Positions 2,559 to 24,740 of a DNA stretch of 32,000 bases are shown here, piece after piece. The notes under the pieces were generated by a model, which was given only the letters and a program-made list of their open reading frames with translations, ran no database searches and was not told the DNA's origin. A program made the position numbers and the translations under genes. The stretch covers positions 3,138,965-3,170,964 of the forward strand of contig NZ_CP104011.1 of assembly GCF_025133575.1 (NCBI RefSeq), written 5' to 3'. The stretch comes from Pseudomonas sp. GCEP-101 (lineage in GTDB: Bacteria > Pseudomonadota > Gammaproteobacteria > Pseudomonadales > Pseudomonadaceae). The first letter of the stretch is position 1, and every line of letters begins with the position of its first letter.

Positions 2559-3887
2559 TTACAGGATCGACAGCGGGTACTCGACGATCAGGCGCAGTTC
2601 GTTGTTGTCGGCTTCACCCTGGTCGCCATTGGAGCGGTGGAACGCCTGGCGCATACGGAACGACAGGTCCTTCGCCGGGCCCTCCTGGACGACGTACTTG
2701 GCCTCCAGGTCGGTCTCGTGGTGCTTGCCATCCTCGCCGTACAGGCCGACGTACTGGCCGTTCGGGTCGGCGTGGGTGCCGTCGATGTTGTCGCCCTTGA
2801 TGTAGCGGGCCATGAAGCTCAGGCCGGGCACGCCGTAGGTATCCATCGCCAGGTCGTAACGGGCCTGCCAGGAGCGCTCGCCCGGGCCGTTGAAGTCGGA
2901 GTACTGCACGGAGTTGGCGAGGAAGATGGAGTCGCCGCCCGCGCCGGCACCGTTGTCGCCGAAGCCGACGTAGTCGAACGGGGTGTCGCCGTTGACCTTC
3001 TGGAAGGCCAGGGTGAAGGTGTGCGCCTGCAGGAAGGAGTAGGCGGCGGCCAGCGACCAGGTGGTGTTGCTGATCTTGCCGGCCTTGGCCTGGCCATGGT
3101 CGCGGGTGTTGTAGATATTGAAGTCGAAGCCCAGCGACTGGTCGCTGGTCATCGGCAGCAACCAGTTCACGTTGCCGTAGTACTGGCGCCAGATGTCCTC
3201 GAACTCGGAGCCGTACAGCGACACGTTGAGGTGGTCGGTGATGGCGTACTTGCCGCCGACGTAGTCCACGCTGTCGGCCTCGACGTTGGCGTAGGTGGCG
3301 TACAGGCCGCCGTCATGGCTGGTGGTGATCGGGCTGGTGCCCGCGGTGAAGTGGCCGGCTTCCACGTCCAGCCCGTCGATTTCGCTGCTCAGCAGGTTGA
3401 AGCCCGAGGCGGTCTGCGGGATCAGGCGCGAACCGCCGGCCGCGAAGACCGGCGCTACCGGCTGCATGTCACCGAATTTCAGCTCGGTCTTGGAGAGGCG
3501 CACTTTCAGCGCGGCGCCCGCCTTGCCGTAGTCGTCCTCGGGGTCGCCATGGTTGTCCACCGGCAGGTTGCCGGTGCCGGTGCGCCCGCCGCCGGCGTCG
3601 AGCTTGATACCCAGGTAGCCGAAGGCATCGACGCCAAAGCCGACGGTGCCCTGGGTGTAGCCGGAGGAGAAGTTCGCCAGGAAGCCCTGGGTCCAGTCGC
3701 GGTTGTCGTCGCGGCCGTTCTTGCCGTCGTGGTCGTAGTAGTAGTTGCGCAGCAGGATGTCGAACTTGGCGTCCTCGGCGAAGCCCTTGGCGTCGGCCTG
3801 GCTGGTGACGAAGGGTTCGGCGCTGGCGAACTGGCTGGCGGCGGCGGAAACAGCGAGCATGATGACGCTGCGTTTGAGGTGCTTCAT
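2559..3887 (-). CDS. OprD-family (Occ) outer-membrane porin
   Basis: ORF 2559..3977. Start taken at ATG 3887 (MKHLKRSVIMLAVSAAASQFASA signal peptide). It has typical OprD-family blocks (FDILLRNYYYDHD, GFLANFSSGYTQGTVGFGVDAFG, LKFGDMQP, SWQARYD) and the C-terminal ELRLIVEYPLSIL beta-barrel end. Confidence 0.9.
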   Translation of the reverse strand: MKHLKRSVIMLAVSAAASQFASAEPFVTSQADAKGFAEDAKFDILLRNYYYDHDGKNGRDDNRDWTQGFLANFSSGYTQGTVGFGVDAFGYLGIKLDAGGGRTGTGNLPVDNHGDPEDDYGKAGAALKVRLSKTELKFGDMQPVAPVFAAGGSRLIPQTASGFNLLSSEIDGLDVEAGHFTAGTSPITTSHDGGLYATYANVEADSVDYVGGKYAITDHLNVSLYGSEFEDIWRQYYGNVNWLLPMTSDQSLGFDFNIYNTRDHGQAKAGKISNTTWSLAAAYSFLQAHTFTLAFQKVNGDTPFDYVGFGDNGAGAGGDSIFLANSVQYSDFNGPGERSWQARYDLAMDTYGVPGLSFMARYIKGDNIDGTHADPNGQYVGLYGEDGKHHETDLEAKYVVQEGPAKDLSFRMRQAFHRSNGDQGEADNNELRLIVEYPLSIL

Positions 3888-4338
3888 GGATATTGCCCCT
3901 AGAGTCTTGGAGGGCCGGCTCGATGAGATGCGTGAGAACCGGACATTTTTATAGGCAGGCACAATGAACCCGAACATGGATTGACCACGACGGAAATCGC
4001 AGGAAGTTGCGTTGGCATTGTTGCTATGAACTTTTACCCGTCCGCTCCAGACCGGTAAAAGCCAGCGCCCATAATGCCGAACGAGTGCCCGATTTAAATG
4101 ACGGAATATGAAAAGGTCTATGTCTCAAAGTGTAATAATCCCTCGCTGAAGTTCAGTGGGGATAGTGCGCGCTCATGGACTGGAAGTATTGACTGACGAC
4201 AATACTCGCGGGCCCGCGCAAGGAGCTCCAAGAATATCGATGGGCATGGCGGCCGGCGCTGCGATGACGCTAAGCTGCGCGCCCCGGTCGCCGCACGATG
4301 CGGCGATGTGTCCCCCATCGATTGCAGAGATTTGTCCC

Positions 4339-4716
4339 ATGATGCCTACCTTCATTCCCGACGCGGACCCCGAATCCATCTCCTCCGACGTCGCCGGCTT
4401 CGGCGGCCTGCTGGTGTCCACGCAGATCCCCACCCGCGAGGACGGCAGCCTGGAACTGGGCGACATCACCGCCCAGAGCGAAGCCACCCTGCGCAGCCTG
4501 CAAGTGGCTCTGGAAAAGGCCGGCAGCGGCCTGGACCACGTGCTGCACCTGACCATCTACCTCACCAGCATGGCCGAGCGCGCCGCGTTCAACGAGGTGT
4601 ACTGCCGCTTCTTCGCCAAGCCTTACCCGGTGCGCGCCGCCGTGGGGATCGCCGAGCTGGCGGTCGAGGGCATGAAGGTCGAAGTCACCGCCATCGCGGC
4701 CAAGCGCGCGGGCTGA
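4339..4716 (+). CDS. RidA/YjgF/L-PSP family enamine/imine deaminase-like protein
   Basis: Internal ATG at 4339 (MMPTFIP) of ORF 4156..4716. The family signature is visible by eye (GDITAQSEATLRSLQVALEKAGSGLDHVLHLTIYL, RAAVGIAELAVEGMKVEV). The upstream part of the ORF looks non-coding. Confidence 0.85.
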   Translation: MMPTFIPDADPESISSDVAGFGGLLVSTQIPTREDGSLELGDITAQSEATLRSLQVALEKAGSGLDHVLHLTIYLTSMAERAAFNEVYCRFFAKPYPVRAAVGIAELAVEGMKVEVTAIAAKRAG

Positions 4717-4736
4717 TTCCCCGTCGTCGCTCGATC

Positions 4737-4765
4737 GGGCCGCTTTGCGGCCCTTTCTTTTTTTC
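4737..4765 (+). terminator. Rho-independent terminator after the RidA-like gene
   Basis: Stem gggccg/cggccc with loop ctttg, followed by tttcttttttt. Confidence 0.7.
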
Positions 4766-5108
4766 TCCCTTGCATGGTGACGCCGCGGGTTCGCGAGCAC
4801 CCTCGCTCCTACGAAGAGCAACGCGGATCTGTAGAGCGAGGCAGACGCCCAGCCCTTGCTCGCGAACCGCTCCCCTCCGATCCCGCCGCCCGAATGTATT
4901 GCTGTGTATCTGCCACTCCCTGCGCCGGTACACGCATACAAAAGCCTCCAGCCGCCGATACGCCCGCGATACATCGCCCAGGCGAAATAGCCCTACCCGA
5001 ACGACACGGCGCCTGGGCAGGGCAACCCCTCCAGCGCAGCGTCCCCAGGGATTCGCCCTTGCGGCATGACCCCGGCGCAGCCCGCGCCACAGCATCTGGA
5101 GAAGCACC

Positions 5109-5627
5109 ATGACCCGTACCTCGAAGACTCAACTGGGCCTGCTCGCTGTCGCCCTGGCCGGTAGCCTGAACCTGGCATCCTCCGCCTTCGCTGTCGAAGC
5201 CCTGCCCCAGGGCTACCAACTGGCCTCTGCCGCCAAGGCGGGCGAAGGCAAATGTGGCGAGGGCAAGTGCGGCGCCAACCAGACCAAGGCCAAGGCCAGC
5301 CAGGGCGAAGGCAAGTGTGGCGAAGGCAAATGCGGCGCCGACGGTGCCCAGGCCAAGGCCAGCGGTGCGGAAGGCAAGTGCGGTGAAGGCAAATGTGGCG
5401 ATGCCTCCTTCGCCCGTACCGACGCCGACCACGACGGCCGTGTCTCCCGCGCCGAACTGCTGGCCGTGGCGCCCAAGGCCAATGCCGAGTTCGATGCCAT
5501 CGACGCCAACCACGACGGCTACCTCTCCGAGGCTGAGGTCTACCAGTTCCGCAAGCACCAGTTCGATTCCAACGGCAAACCCTTCCCGTCCGACCTGTAC
5601 AGCAAGCTGAGCCAGGCCAGGAACTGA
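5109..5627 (+). CDS. Secreted EGKCG-repeat protein with a C-terminal EF-hand pair (candidate MNIO substrate)
   Basis: SD ggagaag lies upstream of ATG 5109. Sec signal peptide ends in AFA. There are six EGKCG motifs arranged as three [10 protein letters not shown] doublets (nt 5241..5400). Two canonical EF-hand loops follow ([26 protein letters not shown]). Confidence 0.85.
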
Positions 5628-5688
5628 GCCGAGCCGACCACCTCCCCGCGCCGCCGGCCGGGGAGGGCACTTCGCCAAGGAGACCGCC

Positions 5689-6534
5689 ATGAGCACCACC
5701 GCACCCCTACAGGGGGCAGGCCTGGGCCTGCGCCGCGCCCTGCTGCCCGACCTGCTGACCCTGGACGACCGCGCCGTGGACTTCCTCGAAGTCGCCCCGG
5801 ACAACTGGATCGGCGTGGGCGGCACCTACGGCGAAGGGTTGGCCCGCCTGGCCGAGCGCTTCCCGCTGTCCTGCCATGGCCTGTCGCTGTCCCTCGGTGG
5901 CCCGGAGCCGCTGGACCACGTGTTCCTCGGCCGCATCCGCGAGTTCCTCGACCAGCACCAGGTGCCGCTGTTCAGCGAACACCTGAGCTACTGCTCCGAC
6001 GAAGGCCACCTCTACGACCTGATTCCCATGCCCTTCACCGACGAGGCCGTGCGCCACATCGCCGGGCGCATCCGCGAAGTGCAGGACGCCCTCGGCCGCC
6101 GTATCGCGGTGGAGAACATCTCCTACTACGCCGCGCCCTACCAGGCGCTGAGCGAAATCGACTTCCTCCGCGCCGTGCTCGGCGAGGCCGACTGCGACCT
6201 GCTGCTGGACGTCAACAACCTCTACGTCAATGCCCACAACCACGGCTACGACGCCGCCGATTTCCTGGCCCGCGTGCCGGCCGAGCGCGTCGTCTGCCTG
6301 CATGTCGCCGGGCACTACGACGAAGCGCCGGACCTGAAGATCGATACCCATGGCGCCGAGGTGAAGGACGACGTCTGGAGCCTGCTGGCCAGCGCCTACC
6401 AGTACCTGGGCACGGTGCCGACCCTGCTCGAGCGTGATTTCAACCTGCCGCCGCTGGCCGAACTGCTCGGCGAAGTGAACACCATCCGCCGCCTGCAAGC
6501 CGCCGCGCGCCGGCCGGAGGTGCGCCATGGCTGA
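5689..6534 (+). CDS. DUF692 / MNIO-family (MbnB-like TIM-barrel) enzyme
   Basis: Hallmark DUF692 blocks are present: [69 protein letters not shown]. It lies immediately downstream of the Cys-repeat protein. Confidence 0.85.
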
Positions 6535-7300
6535 GACCCTGCGCGACCAGCAACTGCGCATGACCCGCTACATCCGTGACCCGCAGGCCAACGAGCCGCC
6601 GCCCGGCATCGAGGCGCGGCGCCTGGCGGTGTACCGGCAATTGTTCTTCGGCAACCTGCAGTCGCTACTCGCCGGCAACTTCCCGGTGCTGCACGCCAGC
6701 CTGGCGCGCGAGCACTGGCAGGCGCTGACCGAGGACTTCTACGCGGCCTTCCGCTGCCAGACGCCGCTGTTCACCGAGGTTGCCGGCGAGTTCGTCGAAT
6801 ATCTGGAGGGGCGCACCGATCAGCCCGGCTGGGTGGCGGAACTGGCGCACTACGAGTTCATCGAGACGGCGCTGCTGCTCAGCGACAACGCCGAGCCACC
6901 CCATGATCCGCACGGTGACCTGCTCGACGGCGTGCCGCTGCTTTCCAGCCTTGCCGTGCCGCTGGCCTACGCCTGGCCGGTCAGCCATATCGGCCCCGAG
7001 CACCTCCCGTCGCAGGCGCCGGCCGAGCCGACATTGCTGCTGGCGCGCCGGGATACCGACCTGAAGGTGTACTTCTCGCGTCTGGCACCGCTGGCCCATG
7101 CGCTGCTGGTGTCGCTGCAACAGTGGCAGCTCACCGGGCGCCAACACCTCACGGCGCTGGCGGAAATTGCCGGCGTCGAAGCGGCCGCCATCGAAGCGCA
7201 GGGCATCGCCCTGCTGCGCAGCCTGAAAGAACAGGGCGTGGTGCTCGGCACCCGCCCCAACTGCACCACCCCCCGTCGTCCCCTCTTGCACCGCCCCTGA
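6527..7300 (+). CDS. DUF2063-family partner protein of the DUF692 enzyme
   Basis: 8-nt overlap (ATGGCTGA) with the DUF692 gene. The N-terminal pattern is typical of DUF2063 (FRRYIRDP-like [25 protein letters not shown]). The DUF692+DUF2063 pairing is the conserved operon architecture. Confidence 0.75.
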
Positions 7301-7312
7301 AGGAGAAGCGCC

Positions 7313-7735
7313 ATGACCGACACCCTCGCAACCGTGATCTACACCGCCCACACCCACACCACCGGCGGCCGCGACGGCCGCGGCCAGACCGCCGACGGCG
7401 AGCTGGACCTGCCCCTGAGCCCGCCCGGTTCGGGCCGCCCCGGCACGAACCCCGAGCAGCTGTTCGCCATCGGCTGGTCCGCCTGCTTCATCGGCGCCCT
7501 GCGTCGCACCGGGCAGAAACTGAACCTGCGCCTGCCGGCCGACGTGGCGGTGAGCGCCGACGTGTCCCTGGGCAACACCGCCGACGGCGGCTTCGCCCTG
7601 GCCGCCCAACTCACCGTGCACCTGCCGGGGCTGGCCGCCGAGGACAAGGCGAAACTGGTGGAAGAAGCGCACCAGATCTGCCCGTACTCCAAAGCTACCC
7701 GCGGCAATATCGAGGTAGGGTTCGTCATTCCCTGA
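7313..7735 (+). CDS. ohr: Ohr/OsmC-family organic hydroperoxide reductase
   Basis: Strong Ohr pattern: TTGGRDG, GTNPEQLFAIGWSACF (first catalytic Cys) and ICPYSKATRGNIEV (second Cys). Begins 13 nt after the DUF2063 stop. Confidence 0.85.
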   Translation: MTDTLATVIYTAHTHTTGGRDGRGQTADGELDLPLSPPGSGRPGTNPEQLFAIGWSACFIGALRRTGQKLNLRLPADVAVSADVSLGNTADGGFALAAQLTVHLPGLAAEDKAKLVEEAHQICPYSKATRGNIEVGFVIP

Positions 7736-7757
7736 TCGATCCCTTCTCACCGCGCAG

Positions 7758-7791
7758 CCCGTGCACCTTCATCGGTGCGCGGGTTTTTTTT
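7758..7791 (+). terminator. Rho-independent terminator ending the EGKCG-MNIO-ohr operon
   Basis: 10-bp stem cccgtgcacc/ggtgcgcggg (one G-U pair), loop ttcatc, then T8. Confidence 0.8.
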
Positions 7792-7819
7792 GTGTCTCAT
7801 CGGCGCGCGAGGTGCTTCC

Positions 7820-7869
7820 CTGTAGGAGCGGGCCATGCCCGCGATCGCGCCCATGGGGCGCTCCTGCAG
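7820..7869. repeat. REP-like palindromic element (copy 1)
   Basis: ctgtaggagcg ... cgctcctgcag inverted termini. It shares an identical 24-mer tgtaggagcgggccatgcccgcga (7821..7844) with 8406..8429. Confidence 0.6.
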
Positions 7870-8069
7870 GTTGGCGCCGGTATTCCCGACCGCGTAGGCG
7901 CGGACTTTGTCCGCGATGCTTTTGCTTCGGGCTGGGAGTTTTTGCGCCGCCTCGGTTTGCGCGTAGGCTTCATGTTTCGCCCCCTCGGGCGAGTTACTTT
8001 TCCAAACGCCGAAAAATAACCAAAAGGCTTGCCCCGGACATCCGGTTTTTCGCTTGGGGCGAAAAATGC

Positions 8070-8178
8070 CCTCGTTGAACCGCAGTTTCAGGGGCCCGCC
8101 GCGAAGGGCCATCCCTGGCCCATCGCGGCTCTCGCGACATCCATGTCGCTCAACCCCTGAAACTCCGCTTCAACGAGG
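8070..8178. repeat. 109-bp structured element bounded by 25-bp imperfect inverted repeats
   Basis: The arms are cctcgttgaaccgcagtttcagggg (8070..8094) and cccctgaaactccgcttcaacgagg (8154..8178), complementary at 23/25 positions. An internal palindrome gcgacatccatgtcgc sits at 8134..8149. Confidence 0.45.
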
Positions 8179-8231
8179 CCTCCTGAACGGGGCATTCGGA
8201 GCATGCGGATGCTCTTCTGGACGTCTTGAGT

Positions 8232-8264
8232 AGCCAAAGCCAAAGCCAAAGCCAAAGCCAAAGC
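8232..8264. repeat. Hexanucleotide microsatellite (AGCCAA)x5.5
   Basis: Direct reading: agccaa repeated five times plus agc, in an intergenic position. Confidence 0.9.
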
Positions 8265-8275
8265 TAGGGCTGCAC

Positions 8276-8351
8276 GTAGGGCGAATAACCCGGAACGGGT
8301 TATCCGCCGATACCTCGACGGCGGATAACGCTGGCGCGTTATGCGCCCTAC
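8276..8351. repeat. Nested palindromic REP-like unit
   Basis: Outer inverted repeat gtagggcgaataac / gttatgcgccctac. Inner inverted repeat gttatccgcc / ggcggataac. Confidence 0.6.
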
Positions 8352-8404
8352 GATCGCTGCGGCGGTGTCCGGACTGGCATGAAACCCCGAGGGTAATTCG
8401 CACC

Positions 8405-8463
8405 TTGTAGGAGCGGGCCATGCCCGCGAACGGCGGACGAAGTCCGCGTTCAACCTCCTGCAC
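8405..8463. repeat. REP-like palindromic element (copy 2)
   Basis: Same 24-mer as copy 1 at 8406..8429. The matching ctcctgca arm is at 8455..8462. Confidence 0.6.
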
Positions 8464-8478
8464 CGACTTCCCGCAGAC

Positions 8479-8513
8479 AAACAAAAACGCCCTCTCCACA
8501 GGGAGAGGGCGTT
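8479..8513 (-). terminator. Rho-independent terminator after the DoxX gene
   Basis: 12-bp perfect stem aacgccctctcc/ggagagggcgtt, loop acag. On the minus strand it is followed by tttttgttt. Confidence 0.75.
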
Positions 8514-8542
8514 GCGGGTCTAGCAGACGAATGGCCAGCCGA

Positions 8543-9058
8543 TCAGGCGCTCCGCGAAGCCCCCTGGACTCGCCGCACCACTCCATCCAGGCTCAACGCC
8601 CCGGCCCCCTTGAGTGCCAGCGGCAGCAGCGCCACCAGGTAGATCAGCGGCAGCTTGTAGTTGCCAAAACCATGGTCGGTGATCGAGTAGCCCTGGGCCA
8701 GTTCCGCCAGGCTCGACCACTGTGCCGGCCAGTGCACCGCGGCAATCGCGACGAGGGTCACGACGATCAGCGAGGCCGAGGCGAAGCGGGTGGCCAGGCC
8801 GAGCAGGAGCAATACCGGCGCGATCAGTTCGGCCCACATCGACACCTGCCAGTCGAAGCCGGCGGAGAAGTGGTTGAAGGGGAAAGGGAAGTTGGCGTGG
8901 ATCTGTTCGAACCAGTTGTCACCGTGCCATTTCTCCAGGCCCGACTCGAAGAATTCCCAGGCCAGGAACAGCCGCAGCGGGATGTCCCAGCCCCAGGCGG
9001 CGAGGCGGTCGAGTTGGGCGAAAACGGTCTTGATCGGGTTCAGGGTCAGCAGGGTCAT
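8543..9058 (-). CDS. DoxX-family inner-membrane protein
   Basis: ATG at 9058 (MTLLTLNPIK) within the long shadow-extended ORF 8543..9730. 171 aa with four hydrophobic segments and DoxX-like RLFLAWEFFESGLEKW and LLLLGLATRFASASL blocks. Confidence 0.85.
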   Translation of the reverse strand: MTLLTLNPIKTVFAQLDRLAAWGWDIPLRLFLAWEFFESGLEKWHGDNWFEQIHANFPFPFNHFSAGFDWQVSMWAELIAPVLLLLGLATRFASASLIVVTLVAIAAVHWPAQWSSLAELAQGYSITDHGFGNYKLPLIYLVALLPLALKGAGALSLDGVVRRVQGASRSA

Positions 9059-9138: not shown

Positions 9139-9777
9139 TCAGGCGTTCGGCAGGGCGGGACGGGCGCCACGGCGCAGGCGCACCGCCAGCTTGGCGAGGA
9201 GCTTGAAGGCGATGGCGCTGAAGATCAGGCCGAAGCCCAGTGGGTACCAGGAGCCCAGCGGCAGGCGCTTGTAGAAGGACAGCAGGAACACCAGGGCGAT
9301 GACCCAGGTGCCGGTGCTGTGCAGGCGCTTCCAGGTGCGGGCGCCGAGCCGCTTCACCGCGTAGGGGAACGAGGTGAGGGTCAGCAGGATGATGAACAGG
9401 TAGCCGACCGAGCCGGGGATGTTCGCGGCGGCGCTGCGGCCGTGCCAGAAGGTCTCGGGGAAGAACTTTACGTAGAAGACGATCAGCACGGCGTGCACGG
9501 CGTGGGAGAAGGCAAAGGCCAGGCCGAGAAAGCGCCGCTCGCGCAGCAGGCCGCGGGTGAAGTCGCCCGGCAGCAGCGACGCCAGGGACGAGGCGAGAAA
9601 GGTGGCGAGGAACAGCGCGAAGGAGGTGCGGGCGGTGACGCGGATGGCGCTGCGCAGCGCTTCCACCCACTGCGGCTGGGACCACAGGGCCAGGACGGTG
9701 ACGATCAGCACCAGCAGCGACAGCAGGCAAAACAGGCGCCAGCCATGCAGGCGGGCGGGGTTGGCGGGACGGTTCAT
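9139..9777 (-). CDS. Polytopic membrane protein, tentatively ferric-reductase/MsrQ-like transmembrane domain
   Basis: ATG at 9777 (MNRPANPARLHGW). About six hydrophobic helices with conserved-looking His pairs (FAFSHAVHAV, RLHSTGTW). The family call is tentative. Confidence 0.6.
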   Translation of the reverse strand: MNRPANPARLHGWRLFCLLSLLVLIVTVLALWSQPQWVEALRSAIRVTARTSFALFLATFLASSLASLLPGDFTRGLLRERRFLGLAFAFSHAVHAVLIVFYVKFFPETFWHGRSAAANIPGSVGYLFIILLTLTSFPYAVKRLGARTWKRLHSTGTWVIALVFLLSFYKRLPLGSWYPLGFGLIFSAIAFKLLAKLAVRLRRGARPALPNA

Positions 9778-9901
9778 GGCGGGCTCCTTGGAGGAACGCG
9801 GCGGGCGGGGTGCCGCCGCTGTTCGTGGAGCCATCCTGGGGGCAGGGCTTATCCCGGATGTGTCCGGGGACAGGCGTCTTGTATCGCTCTGTACAAACCG
9901 C

Positions 9902-11212
9902 TCACGGCGCCGGGCGCAACTGCAGCTGCGCGCAGAGCCCGCCGCTGGCGCGGTTGGACAGGGTCAACGTGCCGCCCAGCGCCTGGCTCAGTTGCTGGAC
10001 GATGGCCAGGCCCAGGCCGGTGCCGCCGGTGCTGCGGTTGCGCGAACTTTCCACCCGGTAGAAAGGTTTTACCACTTCGGCGAGCTCGTCCTCGGGGATG
10101 CCCGGGCCGTCGTCCAACACACGCACATACACCGTACCCTGGGTGTCGCGCTCGACCTCCACCTGGGCGGAGCCACCGAACTTCAGGGCGTTGTCCACCA
10201 GGTTGGTGAGCACCCGGCGCAGGGCATGGGGGCGGGTTTCCAGCACCGCGTGGCTGCTGCCCAGCAGTTCCACGGCCTGGCCGCTGTCCTGGTAGTCCAG
10301 CACCAGGCTGTCGAGGAAGGCGTCGAGGTTGACCTTCACCGCCGCCTCGCTGGCGCCGTCCATGCTGCGCGCGTAGGCGACGCCCTCGCGGACCAGGTGC
10401 TGCATTTCCTCCAGGTCGCTCCACAGGCGCTCGCGCTCGGGGGAGTCGTCCATCTGCTCGACGCGCAGCTTCATCCGTGTGATGGGCGTCTGCAGGTCGT
10501 GGGAGATGGCAGCGAGCAGTTGCATGCGCTCCTTGAGGTAGCTGCCGATGCGGCCCTGCAGTGCGTTGAAGGCGCGGGCGGCGTAGGCGACTTCGCTGGG
10601 GCCGCGCTCGTCCAGTTCCGGCGCCGGGGCGTCGGGGTCGAGGTCGTCCACCGCCTGCGCCAGCTGGGTGAGCGGGCGGATGGCCAGGCGCACGGCGATC
10701 CAGGTGCAGAACAGCAACAGCGCCAGCTGGACCAGCAGCACCCACGGCAGCCATTGCGCCACAGGCACGCCCTTGGGCGTCACGTCGATGGTCAGCGGGC
10801 TGCCGTCCTTGAGCGTCAGGTGCACCTGGAAGTGCGGGATGGCGCCGGGGATGTTCTCGAAGCGCAGCGGGTAGCGCGGCCCGACGACGTCGGCAATGGA
10901 CTGGGCGGCCATTGGCGCCTGCGCCATGTTCATCGGCTCGCCCGGCTGGCCTTCGCTGAGCAGGTAGCGGTAGTTGGGGCGCTGCACCATCGGCAGCCAC
11001 GCCTGGCGCTCGTCCCGGGGCAGGCGGTCGAGCAGGGCGACGGCGGTGCTGACGTCGGTCTCCAGGTTGCCCAGCATCATGTTGCGCGCGCTCTGGTAGC
11101 GCTCGTAGAACTGCGAGCAGAACGACAGGCTGTAGGCGAACACCAGCCCGGCGAGGAAGATCAGCGCCAGGCGCGCGGCCAGCGTGCGTGGCCAGTGCAG
11201 GAGGGATTTCAT
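9902..11212 (-). CDS. EnvZ-type sensor histidine kinase (2 TM, HAMP, HisKA, HATPase_c)
   Basis: H-box LLAAISHDLQTPIT, N-box LTNLVDNALKF, G-boxes DDGPGIP and GGTGLGLAIV. The ATGA start overlaps the stop of the upstream regulator gene. Confidence 0.9.
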   Translation of the reverse strand: MKSLLHWPRTLAARLALIFLAGLVFAYSLSFCSQFYERYQSARNMMLGNLETDVSTAVALLDRLPRDERQAWLPMVQRPNYRYLLSEGQPGEPMNMAQAPMAAQSIADVVGPRYPLRFENIPGAIPHFQVHLTLKDGSPLTIDVTPKGVPVAQWLPWVLLVQLALLLFCTWIAVRLAIRPLTQLAQAVDDLDPDAPAPELDERGPSEVAYAARAFNALQGRIGSYLKERMQLLAAISHDLQTPITRMKLRVEQMDDSPERERLWSDLEEMQHLVREGVAYARSMDGASEAAVKVNLDAFLDSLVLDYQDSGQAVELLGSSHAVLETRPHALRRVLTNLVDNALKFGGSAQVEVERDTQGTVYVRVLDDGPGIPEDELAEVVKPFYRVESSRNRSTGGTGLGLAIVQQLSQALGGTLTLSNRASGGLCAQLQLRPAP

Positions 11213-11949
11213 TCGTTCGGCTCGAGCAGTTCGACGGCCAGGGCGAAGACGTAGCCTTCGCTGCGCACCGTCTTGATGTAGGCCGGCTCGCGGGCGTCAT
11301 CCAGCAGGCGCTGGCGCAGGCGGCTGACCAGCAGGTCGATGGAGCGGTCGAAGATGTCCGCCTCGCGACCCTGGGTGAGGTTCAGCAACTGTTCGCGGCT
11401 GAGCACGCGCTGCGGGTGATCGACGAACACGCGCAACAGGCGGTACTCGGCGCCGCTGAGGGCGACCAGGGTGCCGTCTTCGTCGAGCAGGTGGCGCGCG
11501 GTGGTGTCCAGCTTCCAGCGGCCGAAGCCGATCAGCCGGCTCGCCTCGCTGACCTGCAGGTTCGGCGGCAGCATGCGGGTGCGGCGCAGCACGGCGTTGA
11601 TCCGCGCCAGCAGCTCGCGGGCGGAGAAGGGCTTGGTGAGGTAGTCGTCGGCGCCCATTTCCAGGCCGATGATGCGGTCGGTCTCGTCGTTGCGCGCGGT
11701 GAGCATCAGCACCGGGGTGGACTTGTGCTTGCCCACGCGCAGCTCGCGGCACAGCTTCAGGCCATCGTCGCCGGGCATCATGATGTCGAGGACGATCAGG
11801 TCCACCGCGTTGGCGTCGAGAAAGGCGCGCATCTGCCGGCCGTCCGCCGCCAGGCTCACGCGCAGGCCGTTCTTCTTCAGGTAGTTGCCGACCAGCTCGC
11901 GGATCTCGCGGTCGTCGTCGACGATCAGTACGTGATCGACATGGTCCAT
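11209..11949 (-). CDS. OmpR-family response regulator
   Basis: ATG at 11949 (MDHVDHVLIVDDD). Receiver motifs are DLIVLDIMMPGDDG and a conserved K in YLTKPF. The winged-helix C-terminus carries LSGAEYRLLRVF and IKTVRSEGY. Confidence 0.9.
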   Translation of the reverse strand: MDHVDHVLIVDDDREIRELVGNYLKKNGLRVSLAADGRQMRAFLDANAVDLIVLDIMMPGDDGLKLCRELRVGKHKSTPVLMLTARNDETDRIIGLEMGADDYLTKPFSARELLARINAVLRRTRMLPPNLQVSEASRLIGFGRWKLDTTARHLLDEDGTLVALSGAEYRLLRVFVDHPQRVLSREQLLNLTQGREADIFDRSIDLLVSRLRQRLLDDAREPAYIKTVRSEGYVFALAVELLEPNE

Positions 11950-12175
11950 GCCGGTGCCTCGTTCGTAGTGGGTTGAGGCGAGTGTATAGCGCAGCGCCGT
12001 GCTTGCCTGCCGTGCTTTGTATTCCACTGTATCCAACCCCGCCGGCGATACCCGGCGCGGCAAACCCAGGGCCTGCGCGACACAAGCCCGATACCTCCTG
12101 AACGTGAAATGGGCACCAACGGCAAGGCACACAGCCCCCCGCCGATCAAACCCGACACAGGACAGGAGAACCACC

Positions 12176-12448
12176 ATGAAATCCGCTCACATCGCCCAAG
12201 CTTGCCTCTTCGCTGCCATCGCCGCCTTTGCCAGCGTCGGCGCCCAGGCTGCCGACACCCCGCCCGCCGAGCAGTACCACTACGGACAGAAACTGGACGT
12301 GAAGCGCGTCCTGGCCATCCACGAAGAGAACGCCTCGCCGTTCGACTGCGGCATCGTCAACGCCCGCATGGACTACCTGGATTCCCACGGCCAGCCGCAC
12401 AGCCTGGCCTATCGCAAGTTCGCCACCAACTGCAACGAAGGCGGCTGA
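12176..12448 (+). CDS. Small secreted DUF2790-like protein
   Basis: SD aggaga precedes ATG 12176. Signal peptide ends in GAQA. The YHYGQKLDVKRVL ... CGIVNARMDYLDSHGQ pattern is typical of DUF2790. Divergent from the two-component operon. Confidence 0.7.
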   Translation: MKSAHIAQACLFAAIAAFASVGAQAADTPPAEQYHYGQKLDVKRVLAIHEENASPFDCGIVNARMDYLDSHGQPHSLAYRKFATNCNEGG

Positions 12449-12489: not shown

Positions 12490-12541
12490 CCCTGGCGCTT
12501 AACCATCGCGACTCCCGGGCCGACGGCCCATCGAGGTGCCC

Positions 12542-13762
12542 ATGTTGCTCATCGCCTTTCTCGGCGGGGCGCTGACCTTGCTCAGCCCCTGCATCCTTCC
12601 CGTCCTGCCGTTGTTGCTGCAGCGCGCCGGCGGCCCGGCGTGGTCGCCCTGGTTCACGCTGCTCGGCCTGGCCAGCGGCTTCGCCGTGCTGGCGAGCCTG
12701 GCGACCGTCTCCAGCAACTGGGTGATCGCCGCCAGCGAATGGGGCCGCTACGTCGCCCTCGTGTTGCTCGCGGTGTCCGCGCTGGCGCTGCTGTGGCCGC
12801 GCTTCAGCGACGTAATGGCCAAGCCCTGGGCGTGGCTCGGTGATCGCCTGCACGGTGAGTCCCGGCGCTTGCCGCCGACTGTTTCCGCGTGGGTACTGGG
12901 CTTCGCTGCCGGCCTGCTGTGGGCGCCGTGCGCCGGGCCGGTGCTGGGGCTGATTCTCTCCGGCGCCATGCTGCAAGGCCCGAGTGCGCAGACCAGCCTG
13001 CTGCTGTTCGCCTACGGCCTGGGCAGCGCGACGGTGCTGGGTGTGGTGCTCTTCGCCGGCCGCCGGCTGATGCAGCACGTGCGCCCGCGCATGGCGGTCA
13101 TCGAGGGGCTGCGCCGCGCTACCGGCCTGCTCGCCCTGCTGGCCGTCGTCGGCATCGCCAGCGGTGCCAGCGCACAACTGGCCGCCGGCCGCTCATCCAC
13201 GCTGGTGAACAGCCTGGAGCGCAAGGTCATCGACGGGGTGCCCGCGCTGATCAGCCAACTGATGCCCGGCGACATGGCACACGGCGCCGAGCGCCTGCCC
13301 GACCTCGGCCCGGCGCCCGAGCTGCAAGGCGCGGTGGAGTGGATCAACAGCCCCGAACTGAACCTGCGCGAGCTGCGCGGCAAGGTCGTGCTGGTCGACT
13401 TCTGGACCTACGACTGCATCAACTGCCAGCACAGCCTGCCGTACGTGAACGCCTGGGCGAAGAAGTACGCGGACCAGGGCCTGGTGGTGATCGGCATACA
13501 CACCCCGGAGTACCCCTACGAACGCGTGCCGGCCAATGTCCGCGAAGCGGTGAAGCGACACGACATCCACTACCCCGTGGCGCTGGACAACCAGTACCGC
13601 CTCTGGAATGCCTTCGCCAACCAGTACTGGCCGGCGCACTACTTCATCGACGCCCAAGGGCGGATTCGCCACCTGTCCATCGGCGAGGGTGGGTATGAGG
13701 AGCAGGAGCAGGTGATCCAGGCGTTGTTGAAGGAGAGGGATCAGGGAAAGGCAGGGGTTTGA
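12542..13762 (+). CDS. DipZ-like thiol-disulfide oxidoreductase (CcdA/DsbD transmembrane domain fused to a thioredoxin-like domain)
   Basis: N-terminal DsbD-type membrane domain with LLSPCILPVLP and LLWAPCAGPVL Cys-Pro motifs. C-terminal redoxin domain with VLVDFWTYDCINCQHSLP (CxxC). ATG 12542 is preferred over GTG 12536 on SD spacing. Confidence 0.85.
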   Translation: MLLIAFLGGALTLLSPCILPVLPLLLQRAGGPAWSPWFTLLGLASGFAVLASLATVSSNWVIAASEWGRYVALVLLAVSALALLWPRFSDVMAKPWAWLGDRLHGESRRLPPTVSAWVLGFAAGLLWAPCAGPVLGLILSGAMLQGPSAQTSLLLFAYGLGSATVLGVVLFAGRRLMQHVRPRMAVIEGLRRATGLLALLAVVGIASGASAQLAAGRSSTLVNSLERKVIDGVPALISQLMPGDMAHGAERLPDLGPAPELQGAVEWINSPELNLRELRGKVVLVDFWTYDCINCQHSLPYVNAWAKKYADQGLVVIGIHTPEYPYERVPANVREAVKRHDIHYPVALDNQYRLWNAFANQYWPAHYFIDAQGRIRHLSIGEGGYEEQEQVIQALLKERDQGKAGV

Positions 13763-16646: not shown

Positions 16647-17717
16647 CTATTTGAGTACCAAAATGGGGTGCGCCCGTTCCCTAGGGTGGCCAGGGAAGCT
16701 TGAAAAGCAAATATTGCTATTGGCTGCAGCGCTAGGTCTGGTTGGGCCGTATACGCTTTCCATACTGAAGAAAACAGATTTTTTATCGTTCTCCGCGAAC
16801 CCACTAAATCCATTCTGAATAAGATTGGTAACTGTGGCCTCTTCTCGTTCTGTTCCTAAATAGCATAAGTCTTGGCACATTTGAGCGAGTTGAAGAGCTG
16901 TAGGTCTTTTCTCGGCCTCGTAGGCTAAGCAACTATCTACAATTCTTTGCAGTTCTTCGGACAGCGGTTTGAATTGGGGGTTGGAGGTCATAAATGCCGG
17001 CCACGGTTTTCGATCCTTGGTCTTAACATTAACCGCCGCATCTAGGTATAAACCAAAAGGGTGTTCGCCAGTTAATAGAAGGAACATCATTGCGCCAAGG
17101 GACCAAATGTCTACTGGTTTTTCAGTCCGATCACCTGCCTTTCTGAACATCATTTCAGGAGCCATAAATGGAAGGGCTCCTTTAATTGTTCCTGATGTTG
17201 AGTTGGTGAAGTCCCCCTTTCTATGTGCGTCCTCGAAAACTTCTTCAGTTAAGGTGGCGATACCAAAATCTGTGATCTTTAATTCGTATAAATTCACGCC
17301 GTGGGAGGTGATGATATTGCTTGGTTTTAAGTCTCTATGAATTACACCTGCTCTATGCGATGCCAGTATGCCTTTAGCTAGGTGATGAAGAACGTGTGCT
17401 GCTAAGTGGGGGTCAAGGAATCCAAATTTCTTTAACTTCGCGTCAAGGGTTTCCCCTTCAACAAACTCTTCAATCAAGAAGAATTGCTCGTCTTCTTCGA
17501 TGTAGTCTAATGTCTTTGCAACATTGTGATTGTTGATTTTTGCCGCAATAATAGCGCTGTTCTTGAATCGTTTTTCGGCTTGCCCGGCTTGTGGAGTTTT
17601 TAGCGCGACGTGCATTCCTAGTAGCTTATCGTTTGCGAGATATACATCTTGCATGCCGCCACTGCCGATATGTTTTATTACTTGGTATCTATTAGATATC
17701 AGAAGGTCTTTTTTCAT
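16647..17717 (-). CDS. Hanks-type Ser/Thr protein kinase with a C-terminal cold-shock/OB-like tail
   Basis: Motifs GSGGMQDVY (G-loop), VALK, HRDLKPSN, DFG and FMAPE. SD ggaggt is upstream. The start overlaps the stop of the upstream kinase gene (TAATG). AT-rich. Confidence 0.9.
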   Translation of the reverse strand: MKKDLLISNRYQVIKHIGSGGMQDVYLANDKLLGMHVALKTPQAGQAEKRFKNSAIIAAKINNHNVAKTLDYIEEDEQFFLIEEFVEGETLDAKLKKFGFLDPHLAAHVLHHLAKGILASHRAGVIHRDLKPSNIITSHGVNLYELKITDFGIATLTEEVFEDAHRKGDFTNSTSGTIKGALPFMAPEMMFRKAGDRTEKPVDIWSLGAMMFLLLTGEHPFGLYLDAAVNVKTKDRKPWPAFMTSNPQFKPLSEELQRIVDSCLAYEAEKRPTALQLAQMCQDLCYLGTEREEATVTNLIQNGFSGFAENDKKSVFFSMESVYGPTRPSAAANSNICFSSFPGHPRERAHPILVLK

Positions 17718-18772
17718 TATGGCATTACCTCCGGATTAGACACGTCGAAAGTTATAAATCTTCTGCTAGATCCTGTGCCGAATGTCAGGACGCAGCAGTG
17801 AGGCAGAGCTTCACCATTTGCGATATTTCTATTGTTGGCGGTGACTTGTCCGGATTGGGATTTGACTATGAATTGATAGCCGTCATAGTTAATACTTATT
17901 TCCCCGAGTGATGCGATTTTTACGTTGACGTTAGTCGAGTCTTTATTCAGTTCGTACGTGGCTCCGTTTGCAACTAACAGTGCTCGATGCTTATTGTGAA
18001 GCAAGTGACGATTTAGAGTTTTCTCTATTTCGCTAATGTGGGGGCGCTTTTGTGTGTCATGGCTGAGGCAATCTTCAAGTAAACCTATAATGTCGGAAGG
18101 TATTCCTTTGAGATATTCATTCAGCTCTCCCGGTTCTATTTTTCCCGGCGGGTAAGCTGTGAGCGTTGCCGGGATTCGCTTATCCTTTTTCAGCGCAAGC
18201 GCGGTTATTGCGAAGGCGTATACATCAATCGAGTTATCGAAGCTGACATCACTCTTTTTCCACAATTCCGGAGCCATAAAAATAGGGGTGCCAATGGCGT
18301 TAACTGTAGCTGCGTCCTCGCCATGCCTCCGGGAAAGTCCGAAGTCGAGAATCTTCAGATTTCCACTGGAGTCAATTTTTATGTTGGAAGGTTTGATGTC
18401 TCGGTGGATAATTCCCGAAGCATGTATGGCTGAGAGTCCGCAAGCTATTTGCCAAAGTGTTTTCAAATATTCATTGTCTAAGCTTTGGCAGCCGGGTGTG
18501 AGAGTGTCTCCATCGATAAATTCTAGAATTAGTGCCTGGTTTGTGTTTCCGTCTTCTTTTATCTCAATTATGTCGTAAAGCTGAACAACGTGCCTTGAGC
18601 GAATTTGAAGAAGGGCTTTTTGCTCATCTAGCAGTCGACGGGCCTCTTCGCCCTTTTTTAGGACTTTGAGGATGACTTCTCTGTTGAGGTGGGTGTCGGT
18701 GCATTTATATATTTCACCCATTCCGCCGGCAGTCAAAGGGGCGGATAGTTCATATCTACTTGGAAGAATCAT
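17717..18772 (-). CDS. Hanks-type Ser/Thr protein kinase with a C-terminal FHA-like tail
   Basis: Motifs GGMGEIYK, VILK, HRDIKPSN, DFG and FMAPE. ATG 18772, preceded by aagga at 8 nt, is preferred over GTG 18778. Overlaps the PP2C 3' end by 17 nt. Confidence 0.9.
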   Translation of the reverse strand: MILPSRYELSAPLTAGGMGEIYKCTDTHLNREVILKVLKKGEEARRLLDEQKALLQIRSRHVVQLYDIIEIKEDGNTNQALILEFIDGDTLTPGCQSLDNEYLKTLWQIACGLSAIHASGIIHRDIKPSNIKIDSSGNLKILDFGLSRRHGEDAATVNAIGTPIFMAPELWKKSDVSFDNSIDVYAFAITALALKKDKRIPATLTAYPPGKIEPGELNEYLKGIPSDIIGLLEDCLSHDTQKRPHISEIEKTLNRHLLHNKHRALLVANGATYELNKDSTNVNVKIASLGEISINYDGYQFIVKSQSGQVTANNRNIANGEALPHCCVLTFGTGSSRRFITFDVSNPEVMP

Positions 18773-22726: not shown

Positions 22727-22754
22727 GCCCACCCGGCCTAACAGCCGAAGCACC

Positions 22755-22784
22755 GAACCCCGCTCCGGCGGGGTTCTTTCTTCT
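22755..22784 (+). terminator. Terminator/attenuator immediately after the major coat gene
   Basis: 9-bp stem gaaccccgc/gcggggttc, loop tccg, then tttcttct. Its position is analogous to the post-gVIII terminator of Ff phages. Confidence 0.7.
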
Positions 22785-22796
22785 GGAGTCCGAACA

Positions 22797-22868: not shown

Positions 22869-22870
22869 CC

Positions 22871-24728: not shown

Positions 24729-24740
24729 GGGGGACCGGTC

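Follow-up and report, generated by a model that had tools for sequence, protein, structure and literature searches.

Copper-binding RiPPs whose precursors carry EGKCG repeats are the products of several described gene sets. In the captophorin systems HvfABC of H. influenzae (oxazolin), FonABC of F. thermophila (fontiphorin) and NgoABC of N. gonorrhoeae (gonophorin), a signal-bearing EGKCG-repeat precursor is followed by an HvfB-type MNIO (DUF692) and a DUF2063/PME1 partner, and the products bind copper (PMC13097082). Every EGKCG repeat of oxazolin, fontiphorin and gonophorin is modified to a 5-thiooxazole, a structure that replaced the former oxazolone-thioamide assignment in 2025–26. DoxX proteins are frequent accessories of captophorin systems, and ECF sigma factors are cited as regulators of other members. 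A second group, the bufferins Buf1 (DUF2282) and Buf2 of Caulobacter vibrioides and relatives, combines a Sec signal peptide, conversion of cysteine to 5-thiooxazole and periplasmic copper buffering with a DUF2063 partner and a DoxX accessory.

An EF-hand chimera of such precursors, the "Buf_EGKC|EF-hand" class, has already been described and equated with EfhP (PMC12452194). Ca2+ binding has been demonstrated for P. aeruginosa EfhP only, published predictors differ on whether this protein has a cleaved signal or is anchored in the membrane, and an efhP mutant is more sensitive to H2O2 (PMC4053335). In P. aeruginosa, BfmR binds the PA4107 (efhP) promoter, binding to its targets was demonstrated by EMSA and footprinting, and the bfmR promoter is autoregulated (PMC4148453). 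The efhP operon, the PA4103 operon and the bfmR operon are the top three BfmR targets in ChIP-seq, with efhP the most strongly activated gene (PMC8025907).

We analysed a 32,000-nucleotide stretch of Pseudomonas sp. GCEP-101 DNA (the window). As judged from its genes, the locus described here corresponds to the efhP cluster of P. aeruginosa, and thus to a system type that is already known. It has the same gene content, order and orientation as PA4101–PA4107, the precursor operon converging on an FRD-like/DoxX operon that lies behind the regulator and kinase genes. Identities to the P. paraeruginosa proteins are 55% for EfhP, 72% for PA4106, 50% for PA4105, 63% for PA4104 and 69% for PA4103; the syntenic regulator and kinase (L150) are 83% and 66% identical. 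Both sets encode an EF-hand chimera with EGKCG doublets and have BfmR boxes at the same three promoters. They differ in the number of doublets, which is three (6 Cys) here and two (4 Cys) in the efhP system, and in the flank of the regulator, where a DUF2790 gene and a DsbD–thioredoxin fusion take the place of PA4100. Moreover, the DUF2063 gene is followed here by ohr, whereas hvfC and hvfX of P. paraeruginosa converge with about 190 bp between them. We consider it likely that the whole locus represents the efhP-PA4106-PA4105 / PA4103-PA4104 / bfmRS set as it occurs in Metapseudomonas (P. nitroreducens group), with ohr appended to the first operon (Table 1). Because HvfA, HvfB, HvfC and HvfX are already named in NCBIfam and EF-hand chimeras are a published class, the window is mainly one further instance; Ohr is its sole new element, and the novelty is modest.

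Table 1. Positions of the genes and regulatory elements of the locus, in window coordinates.
Feature	Position	Strand	Match or description
hvfA promoter region with BfmR-box-like sites	4895..4977	.	TACACAGCAATACA 4895-4908 (-); direct repeat GATACGcccgcGATACA 4957-4973 (+); GATACATCGC 4968-4977 (+)
hvfA-EF, EfhP-like precursor, 172 aa	5109..5627	+	NF050137 and four EF-hand Pfam models above cut-off
Intercistronic GC-rich hairpin	5641..5666	+	CCUCCCCG...CGGGGAGG, between precursor gene and hvfB
hvfB, MNIO (DUF692) maturase, 281 aa	5689..6534	+	NF003818, PF05114
hvfC, DUF2063 + NGO1945_C partner (RRE-type, PME1), 257 aa	6527..7300	+	NF050145, PF09836, PF22106
ohr, cytoplasmic Cys-based organic hydroperoxide reductase, 140 aa, last operon gene	7313..7735	+	TIGR03561
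Intrinsic terminator of hvfA-hvfB-hvfC-ohr	7756..7793	+	12-bp stem, hairpin 7756-7785, then T8
Terminator of FRD-like/hvfX transcript	8486..8513	-	12-bp stem, then T-run
hvfX, DoxX-family membrane protein, PA4104 counterpart	8543..9058	-	PF07681 72.7 bits; NF050144
Ferric-reductase-like/MsrQ-like transmembrane protein (FRD-like), PA4103 counterpart, first gene of FRD-hvfX operon	9139..9834	-	weak MsrQ match NF003831, E = 4e-7
BfmR box	9879..9893	-	GTACAGAGCGATACA; 59 nt upstream of FRD-like start, in 67-nt gap after kinase gene
BfmS-like sensor histidine kinase	9902..11212	-	HAMP, HisKA, HATPase_c
BfmR-like OmpR-family response regulator	11209..11949	-	Response_reg, Trans_reg_C
BfmR-box-like site	12018..12031	-	TACAGTGGAATACA; pattern search, 2 mismatches; 69-82 nt upstream of regulator gene

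The sequence-only reading had proposed that four plus-strand genes form an operon with tight or overlapping junctions and a closing terminator. The ORF coordinates, gaps and hairpin confirm this arrangement, in which the EGKCG-repeat precursor, the HvfB MNIO, its HvfC partner and Ohr follow one another between positions 5109 and 7735. A 61-nt gap separates hvfA from hvfB, hvfB and hvfC overlap by 8 nt, and hvfC and ohr are 12 nt apart; a GGAG-type ribosome-binding site (AAGGAG for ohr) precedes each of the four start codons. The first terminator is seen only at 7756, where the hairpin folds with –25.6 kcal/mol (z = –4.4 against shuffles), and the RidA-like gene upstream of the operon ends at a terminator of its own (4737–4753). 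All four products score above curated NCBIfam/Pfam cut-offs in the profile search. A sigma-70 scan of positions 4000–9000 found no consensus promoter, a result that we count against the explanation as a whole.

The precursor had been read as a plain secreted Cys-repeat protein, and here the profiles lead to a different description. It contains three EGKCG doublets (nt 5244–5273, 5307–5336 and 5370–5399) with cysteines at residues 49, 54, 70, 75, 91 and 96, encoded by a 63-bp tandem repeat of 2.6 copies (5240–5400). The corresponding model, NF050137 (KCGExKCG_twice), matches three stretches with 61.3 bits against a cut-off of 19.5. Read from the sequence, residues 1–28 resemble a signal or anchor: the n-region is basic, the hydrophobic core is 17 residues long and AFA|VE occupies positions 26–30. 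C-terminal to the EGKCG segment, at residues ~99–165, lies an EF-hand pair that scores above the cut-offs of Pfam EF-hand_5, 6, 7 and 1, with canonical loops at residues 105–116 (nt 5421–5456) and 132–143 (nt 5502–5537). An AF2 model shows residues 1–98 as disordered and 99–165 as two helix-loop-helix units (pLDDT 70–85), and the C-terminal helix is conserved. The EF-hand pair places the precursor in the published "Buf_EGKC|EF-hand" class as an orthologue of EfhP. Judged by its profile matches, it belongs to the HvfA family by domain and to the EF-hand chimera subtype, and is not an HvfA equivalog, since it fails the strict model NF050188 (52.3 bits against 95). It departs from the captophorins in that its EGKCG segment is short and disordered and is fused to a folded EF-hand pair. 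From the bufferins it differs in having neither DUF2282, for which no match was found in the profile search, nor Buf_6/12Cys.

The two maturation proteins fit the captophorin pattern, as both pass equivalog cut-offs. HvfB scores 422.6 bits with NF003818 (cut-off 360) and 341 with PF05114 (25), and HvfC 263.1 with NF050145 (142), 82.8 with PF09836 (27.2) and 67.1 with PF22106 (27). Together with the match of the precursor, these scores bear out the proposal of an MNIO (DUF692) and DUF2063 system with an EGKCG-repeat substrate that has a signal-like N-terminus, including the suggested matches to PF05114 and PF09836. The nearest solved structure to HvfB is 3bww (E = 4e-78), and HvfC matches PDB 3dee (E = 1e-7). 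In an alignment, H63, H98, E142, D174, N176/177, H205, D219, H221 and E248 of HvfB are identical to residues of MbnB (7tcr) and 3bww; we take these columns, by analogy with the MbnB structures, to be the iron ligands. Two other assignments of HvfB were rejected. MNIO_BufB (NF050167) gives 270.1 bits, under its cut-off of 310, although the protein shares its MNIO subfamily with the bufferins, and the methanobactin enzyme model MbnB (TIGR04159) gives 49.5 against 325. Sec export, thiooxazole formation and periplasmic copper buffering are here predicted from the genes as features held in common with the bufferins.

Ohr had been described as standing in place of the usual DoxX. This is wrong, because an HvfX-family DoxX protein is encoded 0.8 kb downstream of ohr on the opposite strand, matching NF050144 (HvfX family Cu-binding RiPP maturation protein) with 140.5 bits against a cut-off of 80. 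Its gene is convergent to ohr and lies with the FRD-like gene in an operon apart, an arrangement shared with P. paraeruginosa and different from that of the captophorin systems.

Regulation likewise differs from that of captophorins, a two-component system being predicted here. Read from the sequence, the regulator gene starts at the ATG at 11949; the ORF that extends to 12177 is spurious, and the receiver domain begins at residue 83 of that long ORF. Upstream of hvfA, an alignment of seven Pseudomonas regions, including that of P. paraeruginosa efhP, has the invariant blocks GTATnnCnnTGTATC, TACAAA and GATACn6GATACA, and a box at about –180 to –230 is found in all Pseudomonas loci tested but one (L024). 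The box upstream of the FRD-like gene has a 15-nt core identical to the DNase-I-footprinted P. aeruginosa PA4103 site, which we reconstructed from primer p4103-mutation-F, and lies at –59 to –63 in every tested Pseudomonas locus that has an FRD-like gene. The pattern TACAA-N3-GATACA, with at most two mismatches, occurs 8 times in the window (2.25 expected), a count reached by none of 100 shuffles; three of these matches fall in the three predicted promoters. The site upstream of the regulator gene predicts autoregulation. The BfmRS-type pair and the boxes, neither of which the sequence-only reading had noted, appear to tie the precursor and FRD-like/hvfX operons together.

Ohr itself is a full-length member of the Ohr subfamily of OsmC/Ohr peroxiredoxins (TIGR03561, 157.4 bits against 88.85). 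Arg20, Glu48, Cys58 and Cys123 are intact by comparison with the solved Ohr structures 4mh4, 6ecy and 1n2f, as in the Ohr of Ohr/OhrR modules. Unlike in those modules, there is no OhrR (MarR-type) gene beside ohr, all neighbouring genes falling in other families, and ohr closes a RiPP-maturation operon whose promoter is of the BfmR-box type. Its description as an unusual accessory holds, as no mention of Ohr was found in the MNIO literature searched.

Beside EF-hand-type hvfA, ohr is found in four arrangements across two bacterial orders (Pseudomonas and Lysobacteraceae). It follows hvfC in 13 loci from 12 Metapseudomonas-group genomes, lies directly behind a stand-alone hvfA in L096 and L097, and diverges from a stand-alone hvfA in L149 and L172, with boxes in the common spacer. 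In the Lysobacteraceae it is either the last gene of the operon (L026) or placed between hvfC and the regulator genes (L025). This recurrence bears on the possibility that Ohr is a passenger, an antioxidant gene that was inserted after hvfC in one lineage, is read through and is functionally unrelated. Such an origin would fit the fact that ohr is missing from the loci of P. paraeruginosa, the P. putida group and Stenotrophomonas, and the close homologue that stands alone in P. guariconensis (L095). It would also fit the variable, repeat-rich gap downstream of ohr, which differs by 0.75–7.5 kb among relatives. In one relative (L103), an in-frame internal deletion of ohr removes Cys58 from an otherwise intact locus, which suggests that Ohr is probably dispensable for the system. 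Against it stand the four gene orders in two bacterial orders, among them the tight packing in a Lysobacter operon, where the FRD-like gene stops at 4320 and ohr starts at 4321. In addition, the stand-alone hvfA–ohr cassettes retain the BfmR-box promoter, and all but one of the Ohr relatives that are at least 84% identical adjoin hvfA. We therefore regard a passenger role as improbable.

By analogy with the characterised captophorins, the six EGKCG cysteines of the precursor, a putatively secreted and Ca2+-binding protein, are probably converted into copper-binding rings by HvfB and HvfC. The EfhP papers, which describe a Ca2+-binding protein with phenotypes that depend on Ca2+ and suggest that its EGKCG cysteines sense Fe, offer a different view. 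The EfhP-like protein would then be a periplasmic Ca2+ sensor only, whose unmodified cysteines sense metal (Fe) or redox state, with DUF692 and DUF2063 acting on another target; that the precursor falls under the HvfA equivalog cut-off is compatible with this. Yet EGKCG is the exact motif that is modified at each repeat of oxazolin, fontiphorin and gonophorin, and two blocks flanking the doublets are invariant across homologues. The order precursor–MNIO–partner is strictly kept (hvfA-hvfB-hvfC is common to the related loci having hvfB and hvfC; L140 differs), and HvfB exceeds its equivalog cut-off with all presumed ligand columns kept. A function confined to Ca2+ sensing thus seems quite unlikely.

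With modification as the preferred reading, we propose the following sequence of events. The BfmS/BfmR-type system would activate the hvfA, FRD-like/hvfX and its own promoters via GATACA-type boxes, as suggested by the conserved boxes and the experiments in P. aeruginosa. In the cytoplasm, HvfB, guided by HvfC, would turn the six EGKCG cysteines into 5-thiooxazoles with the help of iron and O2, by the precedent of HvfABC, FonABC and NgoABC. The signal sequence would then direct Sec export of the modified protein to the periplasm, where it may be released or membrane-anchored. There, the disordered thiooxazole segment would chelate copper and the C-terminal EF-hand pair would bind Ca2+. HvfX (DoxX) and the ferric-reductase-like protein may donate or take up electrons at the membrane, which is a speculative step. 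Finally, cytoplasmic Ohr would reduce organic or lipid hydroperoxides that arise under the same copper or oxidant stress, acting as a co-regulated protective accessory and not as a maturation enzyme.

A direct part for Ohr in maturation or product upkeep could be imagined, for example in clearing peptide or lipid hydroperoxides that arise from uncoupled turnover of the MNIO iron centre or in guarding thiooxazole thiolates against over-oxidation before export. MNIO chemistry needs O2, the gaps and terminators suggest that ohr is co-transcribed with both cytoplasmic maturation proteins, and its linkage to the precursor gene recurs even where hvfB and hvfC lie elsewhere. Nevertheless, the HvfABC, FonABC and NgoABC products are fully modified in E. 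coli or in vitro with no dedicated Ohr, the majority of loci do without one, and L103 carries a natural ohr deletion. We give this role scant credence and retain Ohr as an accessory.

For EGKCG relatives, the sequence-only reading had cited both copper binding, which stands for the HvfABC, FonABC and NgoABC products, and oxazolone-thioamide pairs, which do not. That the cysteines become such pairs, as in methanobactin, is very improbable: it was the first assignment for H. influenzae oxazolin and survives in NCBIfam model names, but alkylation-assisted HMBC gave 5-thiooxazole as the revised structure for oxazolin, fontiphorin and gonophorin, the same ring was confirmed in bufferin 1 by selective 13C/15N labelling, the absorbance that is diagnostic lies at ~305 nm and not at the 340/390 nm of methanobactin, and HvfB is distant from MbnB.

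One conserved gene set thus stands behind three literatures, on the EfhP Ca2+ sensor, on the BfmRS biofilm and virulence switch, and on MNIO/captophorin copper-binding RiPPs. The top BfmRS targets appear in the BfmRS literature as "hypothetical" operons, and no paper joining BfmR with MNIO work was found in the literature searched. The presence of Ohr in the Metapseudomonas and Lysobacteraceae versions hints at organic-peroxide stress in the physiology of the module. Tentatively, Ohr, the FRD-like protein, HvfX, a periplasmic thioredoxin-type protein and the MNIO-modified EF-hand protein might belong to a single envelope module under BfmRS control, linking Ca2+ sensing with defence against copper and organic peroxides, an idea we think rather unlikely. 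If it were true, the strong effects of BfmRS and EfhP on virulence and biofilms in P. aeruginosa would partly reflect a post-translationally modified metallophore protein, and the recurrent linkage of Ohr would suggest that the physiological stress or signal consists of lipid or organic hydroperoxides.

A minor observation concerns the hairpin between the precursor gene and hvfB, which may, on weak grounds, be a transcript-stabilising or attenuating element. Its centroid fold has –22.5 kcal/mol, which is not significant against shuffles (z = –0.5); L010 (z = –2.9), L081 (z = –4.1) and L026 each have a hairpin in the corresponding place.

The four plus-strand genes hvfA (precursor), hvfB (MNIO, DUF692), hvfC (DUF2063 partner) and ohr are closely packed, with a 61-nt gap between hvfA and hvfB, an 8-nt overlap of hvfB and hvfC, and a 12-nt gap between hvfC and ohr. 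Their open reading frames and the terminator hairpin that follows (-25.6 kcal/mol; z = -4.4 in folding against shuffles) bear out the tightly joined, terminated four-gene operon described in a sequence-only reading. Because the upstream RidA-like gene has its own terminator, the operon has its own promoter region (4754-5108). A sigma-70 promoter scan found no consensus match in 4000-9000. Between hvfA and hvfB, a GC-rich hairpin (5641-5666) occupies the same position in divergent loci, and in the window itself it folds no better than shuffles; it might perhaps raise precursor transcript relative to the enzyme transcripts.

Profile searches assigned the four products to families. The hvfB product matched PF05114 with 341 bits and NF003818 (HvfB family MNIO) with 422.6 (cut-off 360), the hvfC product matched PF09836, PF22106 and NF050145 (HvfC; 263.1, cut-off 142), and the ohr product matched TIGR03561 (Ohr; 157.4, cut-off 88.85). 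The precursor scored 61.3 with NF050137 (KCGExKCG_twice, HvfA-family domain; cut-off 19.5). These matches confirm both the DUF692 and DUF2063 assignments and the earlier proposal that the two enzymes are clustered with an EGKCG-repeat substrate. By the criteria tested, the locus belongs to the EGKCG/HvfABC systems, for which 'captophorins' has been put forward as a class name (PMC13097082), and more precisely to the subgroup of EfhP-type EF-hand chimeras. A bufferin sensu stricto was rejected on a BufB score of 270.1 against a cut-off of 310 and the absence of DUF2282, and a methanobactin system on an MbnB score of 49.5 against a cut-off of 325.

The EF-hand chimera class of precursor has already been published. 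The MNIO landscape paper divided Buf_EGKCG/oxazolin precursors into two types, of which the second combines a short unstructured EGKCG segment with two EF-hand_5 domains and is exemplified by P. aeruginosa EfhP (PMC12452194). The researchers who study EfhP had themselves remarked on 'four repeats of EGKCG' whose role they did not know, and had proposed iron sensing. The precursor in the window (172 aa) has a signal-like N-terminus (residues 1-28, AFA|VE), and its Cys-repeat segment, confined to the first half, holds three EGKCG doublets (Cys at 49, 54, 70, 75, 91 and 96) encoded by a 63-bp tandem repeat (2.6 copies). The initial description as a secreted Cys-repeat protein thus fits the first half; the second is a canonical EF-hand pair (residues about 99-165), with four EF-hand Pfam models above cut-off. 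In an AlphaFold2 model based on 27 homologues, residues 99-165 form two helix-loop-helix units (pLDDT 70-85), after which comes a conserved C-terminal helix, and residues 1-98 have no confident structure. A sequence search of the PDB returned only marginal EF-hand and lanmodulin matches, and the precursor falls below the strict HvfA equivalog model (52.3, cut-off 95). A database search yielded 3,825 relatives, of which the best 120 all carry EF-hand domains, come from Pseudomonas or close relatives wherever named, and include many labelled 'HvfA family oxazolone/thioamide-modified RiPP metallophore'; of these 120, 72 have two doublets, 45 have three and 2 have four. In a Lysobacter MAG (L026, 867-1974), two tandem EF-hand-type precursor genes with two and three doublets precede hvfB, and the last motif of the second is EGQCG instead of EGKCG.

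The oxazolone-thioamide pairs initially suggested as the product of the cysteines were first assigned in H. influenzae oxazolin, and that assignment has been superseded: the literature now assigns 5-thiooxazole to oxazolin, fontiphorin and gonophorin, and this is confirmed for bufferin 1.

The idea that Ohr takes the place of DoxX was not upheld, as an HvfX-family DoxX gene (hvfX) lies on the opposite strand. The layout of the locus is that of P. aeruginosa, in which efhP-PA4106-PA4105 converges on PA4103 (ferric-reductase-like)-PA4104, behind bfmR-bfmS (PMC4148453). A published qPCR primer, used as an exact probe for the PAO1 locus in a species-representative collection, matched only the sister species P. 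paraeruginosa, whose locus served as the comparator. It differs from the window in having two doublets in EfhP instead of three, and in lacking ohr, so that hvfC and hvfX converge about 190 bp apart. For the response regulator, the start at 12177 given by the ORF finder was rejected as 76 codons too far upstream, and the start at 11949 was taken from a reading of the sequence. Divergent from this gene, across a common box-containing spacer, lies a gene for a small secreted DUF2790 protein (12176-12448, +), followed by a fusion of a DsbD-type transmembrane domain with a thioredoxin-like domain (12536-13762, +). The position of the fusion beside the regulator is conserved in other Pseudomonas, and in L025 (Lysobacteraceae) a similar place is taken by a TlpA-like lipoprotein.

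Features of the window, with protein identity to the P. paraeruginosa counterpart
Feature	Position	Strand	Evidence or remark	Counterpart (identity)
BfmR-box-like site TACACTTTGAGACA	4121-4134	-	2 mismatches; spacer between OprD-family porin gene (2559-3977, -) and RidA-like gene	
Terminator of RidA-like gene	4737-4753		separate from operon	
BfmR-box-like site	4895-4908		motif search; upstream of hvfA	
hvfA (precursor)	5109-5627	+	GGAG-type ribosome-binding site; NF050137	EfhP (55%)
hvfB	5689-6534	+	GGAG-type ribosome-binding site; NF003818, PF05114	PA4106 (72%)
hvfC	6527-7300	+	GGAG-type ribosome-binding site; NF050145, PF09836, PF22106	PA4105 (50%)
ohr	7313-7735	+	GGAG-type ribosome-binding site; TIGR03561	
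Operon terminator	7756-7793	+	12-bp GC-rich hairpin with T8 tail	
hvfX (HvfX-family DoxX)	8543-9058	-	NF050144 (140.5, cut-off 80), PF07681; convergent to ohr	PA4104 (63%)
Ferric-reductase-like/MsrQ-like membrane protein	9139-9834	-	precedes hvfX	PA4103 (69%)
BfmR-box-like site	9880-9893		motif search; 67-nt gap before ferric-reductase-like gene	
Sensor kinase	9902-11212	-	upstream of ferric-reductase-like gene	BfmS (66%)
OmpR-type response regulator	11209-11949	-	upstream of ferric-reductase-like gene	BfmR (83%)
BfmR-box-like site	12018-12031		motif search; -69 to -82 of regulator gene (start 11949)	
TspB-like protein	22663-24402	+	filamentous-phage region	
Zot	24741-25922	+	filamentous-phage region	
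434-aa ORF, no family	within 22663-27821	+	filamentous-phage region	
ORF with phage-integrase N-terminal domain	27360-27821	+	filamentous-phage region	

In P. aeruginosa, the three strongest BfmR ChIP-seq peaks are the promoters of efhP, PA4103 and bfmR, efhP is the most activated gene, and the motif is TACAA-N3-GATACA (PMC8025907); binding has been demonstrated by EMSA and DNase footprinting (PMC4148453). Allowing up to 2 mismatches, the window holds 8 such sites where 2.25 are expected, a number reached in 0 of 100 shuffles, and three of the eight fall exactly in the three predicted promoters. The site at 4121-4134 may be a chance match. The box before the ferric-reductase-like gene reads GTACAGAGCGATACAAGAC and the footprinted PA4103 site, as reconstructed from a mutagenesis primer, reads GTACAGAGCGATACATAAC; their 15-nt cores are identical. 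With the exception of L024, every Pseudomonas locus tested has a box both before the ferric-reductase-like gene (-59 to -63) and before hvfA (about -180 to -230). When the upstream regions of seven hvfA genes were aligned, GTATnnCnnTGTATC, TACAAA and a GATACn6GATACA direct repeat proved invariant. Together, the box positions and these invariant blocks across related loci lend good support to the inferred control of the locus by a BfmRS orthologue.

The ohr gene encodes a complete protein (Arg20, Glu48, Cys58 and Cys123). The protein lacks a signal peptide, which places it in the cytoplasm, as for HvfB and HvfC; the neighbouring genes include no OhrR gene. Ohr had been singled out as an unusual accessory, and indeed neither Ohr nor OsmC appears in the MNIO landscape paper or its supplements (PMC12452194), nor did the literature searched yield a paper joining MNIO with 'organic hydroperoxide'. 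The landscape study accepted unrelated genes only within 10 bp of a core gene (PMC12452194), whereas the hvfC-ohr gap in the window is 12 nt.

Three genome scans showed that the Ohr linkage is a minority trait, yet recurrent. The order hvfA-hvfB-hvfC-ohr runs through the P. nitroreducens group and also occurs in Metapseudomonas resinovorans, and all but one of the Ohr relatives that are at least 84% identical adjoin hvfA. P. wayambapalatensis and P. machongensis have stand-alone hvfA-ohr cassettes, which lack hvfB and hvfC and carry the same BfmR-box promoter, and in two further loci (L149, L172) ohr and a stand-alone hvfA diverge from a common spacer that holds boxes. Lysobacteraceae have single-strand arrays of the form hvfX-hvfA-hvfA'-hvfB-hvfC-FRD-ohr (FRD, ferric-reductase-like; no intergenic bases between FRD and ohr) and hvfX-hvfA-hvfB-hvfC-ohr-TlpA-like-RR-HK. 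The gene is missing from the P. paraeruginosa, P. putida-group and Stenotrophomonas loci. In Pseudomonas MAG EaCA-3 (L103, 8001-8264), ohr keeps its operon position in an otherwise intact locus and has an in-frame internal deletion of roughly residues 28-88, which include the peroxidatic Cys (Cys58 region). The absence of ohr from several lineages and this deletion count against an essential role of Ohr.

In L096 (7346-8411), L097, L149 (7024-8462) and L172 (7258-8381), an EF-hand-type hvfA with BfmR-like boxes has ohr either immediately after it or in divergent orientation, and the vicinity contains neither hvfB nor hvfC. The precursor of L172 appears degenerate: it has a single doublet, and its first EF loop is damaged. 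Orphan hvfA-EF genes occur in many fluorescens-group Pseudomonas.

In the mechanism we propose, BfmRS-type activation would act on the promoters of hvfA, the ferric-reductase-like gene/hvfX and the regulator. HvfB and HvfC would turn the six cysteines into 5-thiooxazoles in the cytoplasm, and the modified precursor would be exported by Sec; in the periplasm its disordered segment would chelate copper, while the EF-hand pair would bind Ca2+. HvfX and the ferric-reductase-like protein could give membrane redox support, and Ohr, under the same control, could act in the cytoplasm to protect against organic hydroperoxides. As a rule, copper, gold and oxidants induce captophorin clusters (PMC13097082), and an efhP mutant is more sensitive to H2O2 at high Ca2+ (PMC4053335). 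A further, tentative proposal, which we consider rather unlikely, is that the modified EF-hand protein makes up, with Ohr, HvfX and the ferric-reductase-like protein, a single envelope stress module under BfmRS control. The sole feature not found in the literature searched is the recurrent Ohr accessory, along with the explicit link drawn between the BfmRS regulon and MNIO biology.

The ohr-hvfX gap (7736-8542) is repeat-rich. It contains two copies of a REP-like element, GTAGGAGCGGGCCATGCCCGCGA (7822-7845 and 8407-8430), an (AGCCAA)x5.5 microsatellite (8232-8264) and, just past the hvfX terminator, a TwoAYGGAY RNA (Rfam RF01731; 8061-8187, minus strand; 54.3 bits, gathering score 43). In relatives the gap can be as short as about 0.75 kb or as long as 7.5 kb; L002, L005 and L008 have an insert of roughly 7 kb, which in L005 contains six plus-strand ORFs.

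Elsewhere in the window, a low-GC island on the minus strand (16647-19880; 43-45% GC against about 65%) encodes a pair of neighbouring Ser/Thr protein kinases together with a PP2C phosphatase. Matches of the kinases to PADLOC models (mad6 and PD-T4-6, E = 1e-55 and 3e-47) suggest a horizontally acquired candidate defence module. Filamentous-phage (inovirus/Pf-like) genes occupy 22663-27821 on the plus strand. Adjoining this prophage remnant is a low-GC (44-47%) gene for a 609-aa NACHT-domain NTPase (28389-30218, +), with a marginal PADLOC match only (PDC-S60, E = 2e-4).
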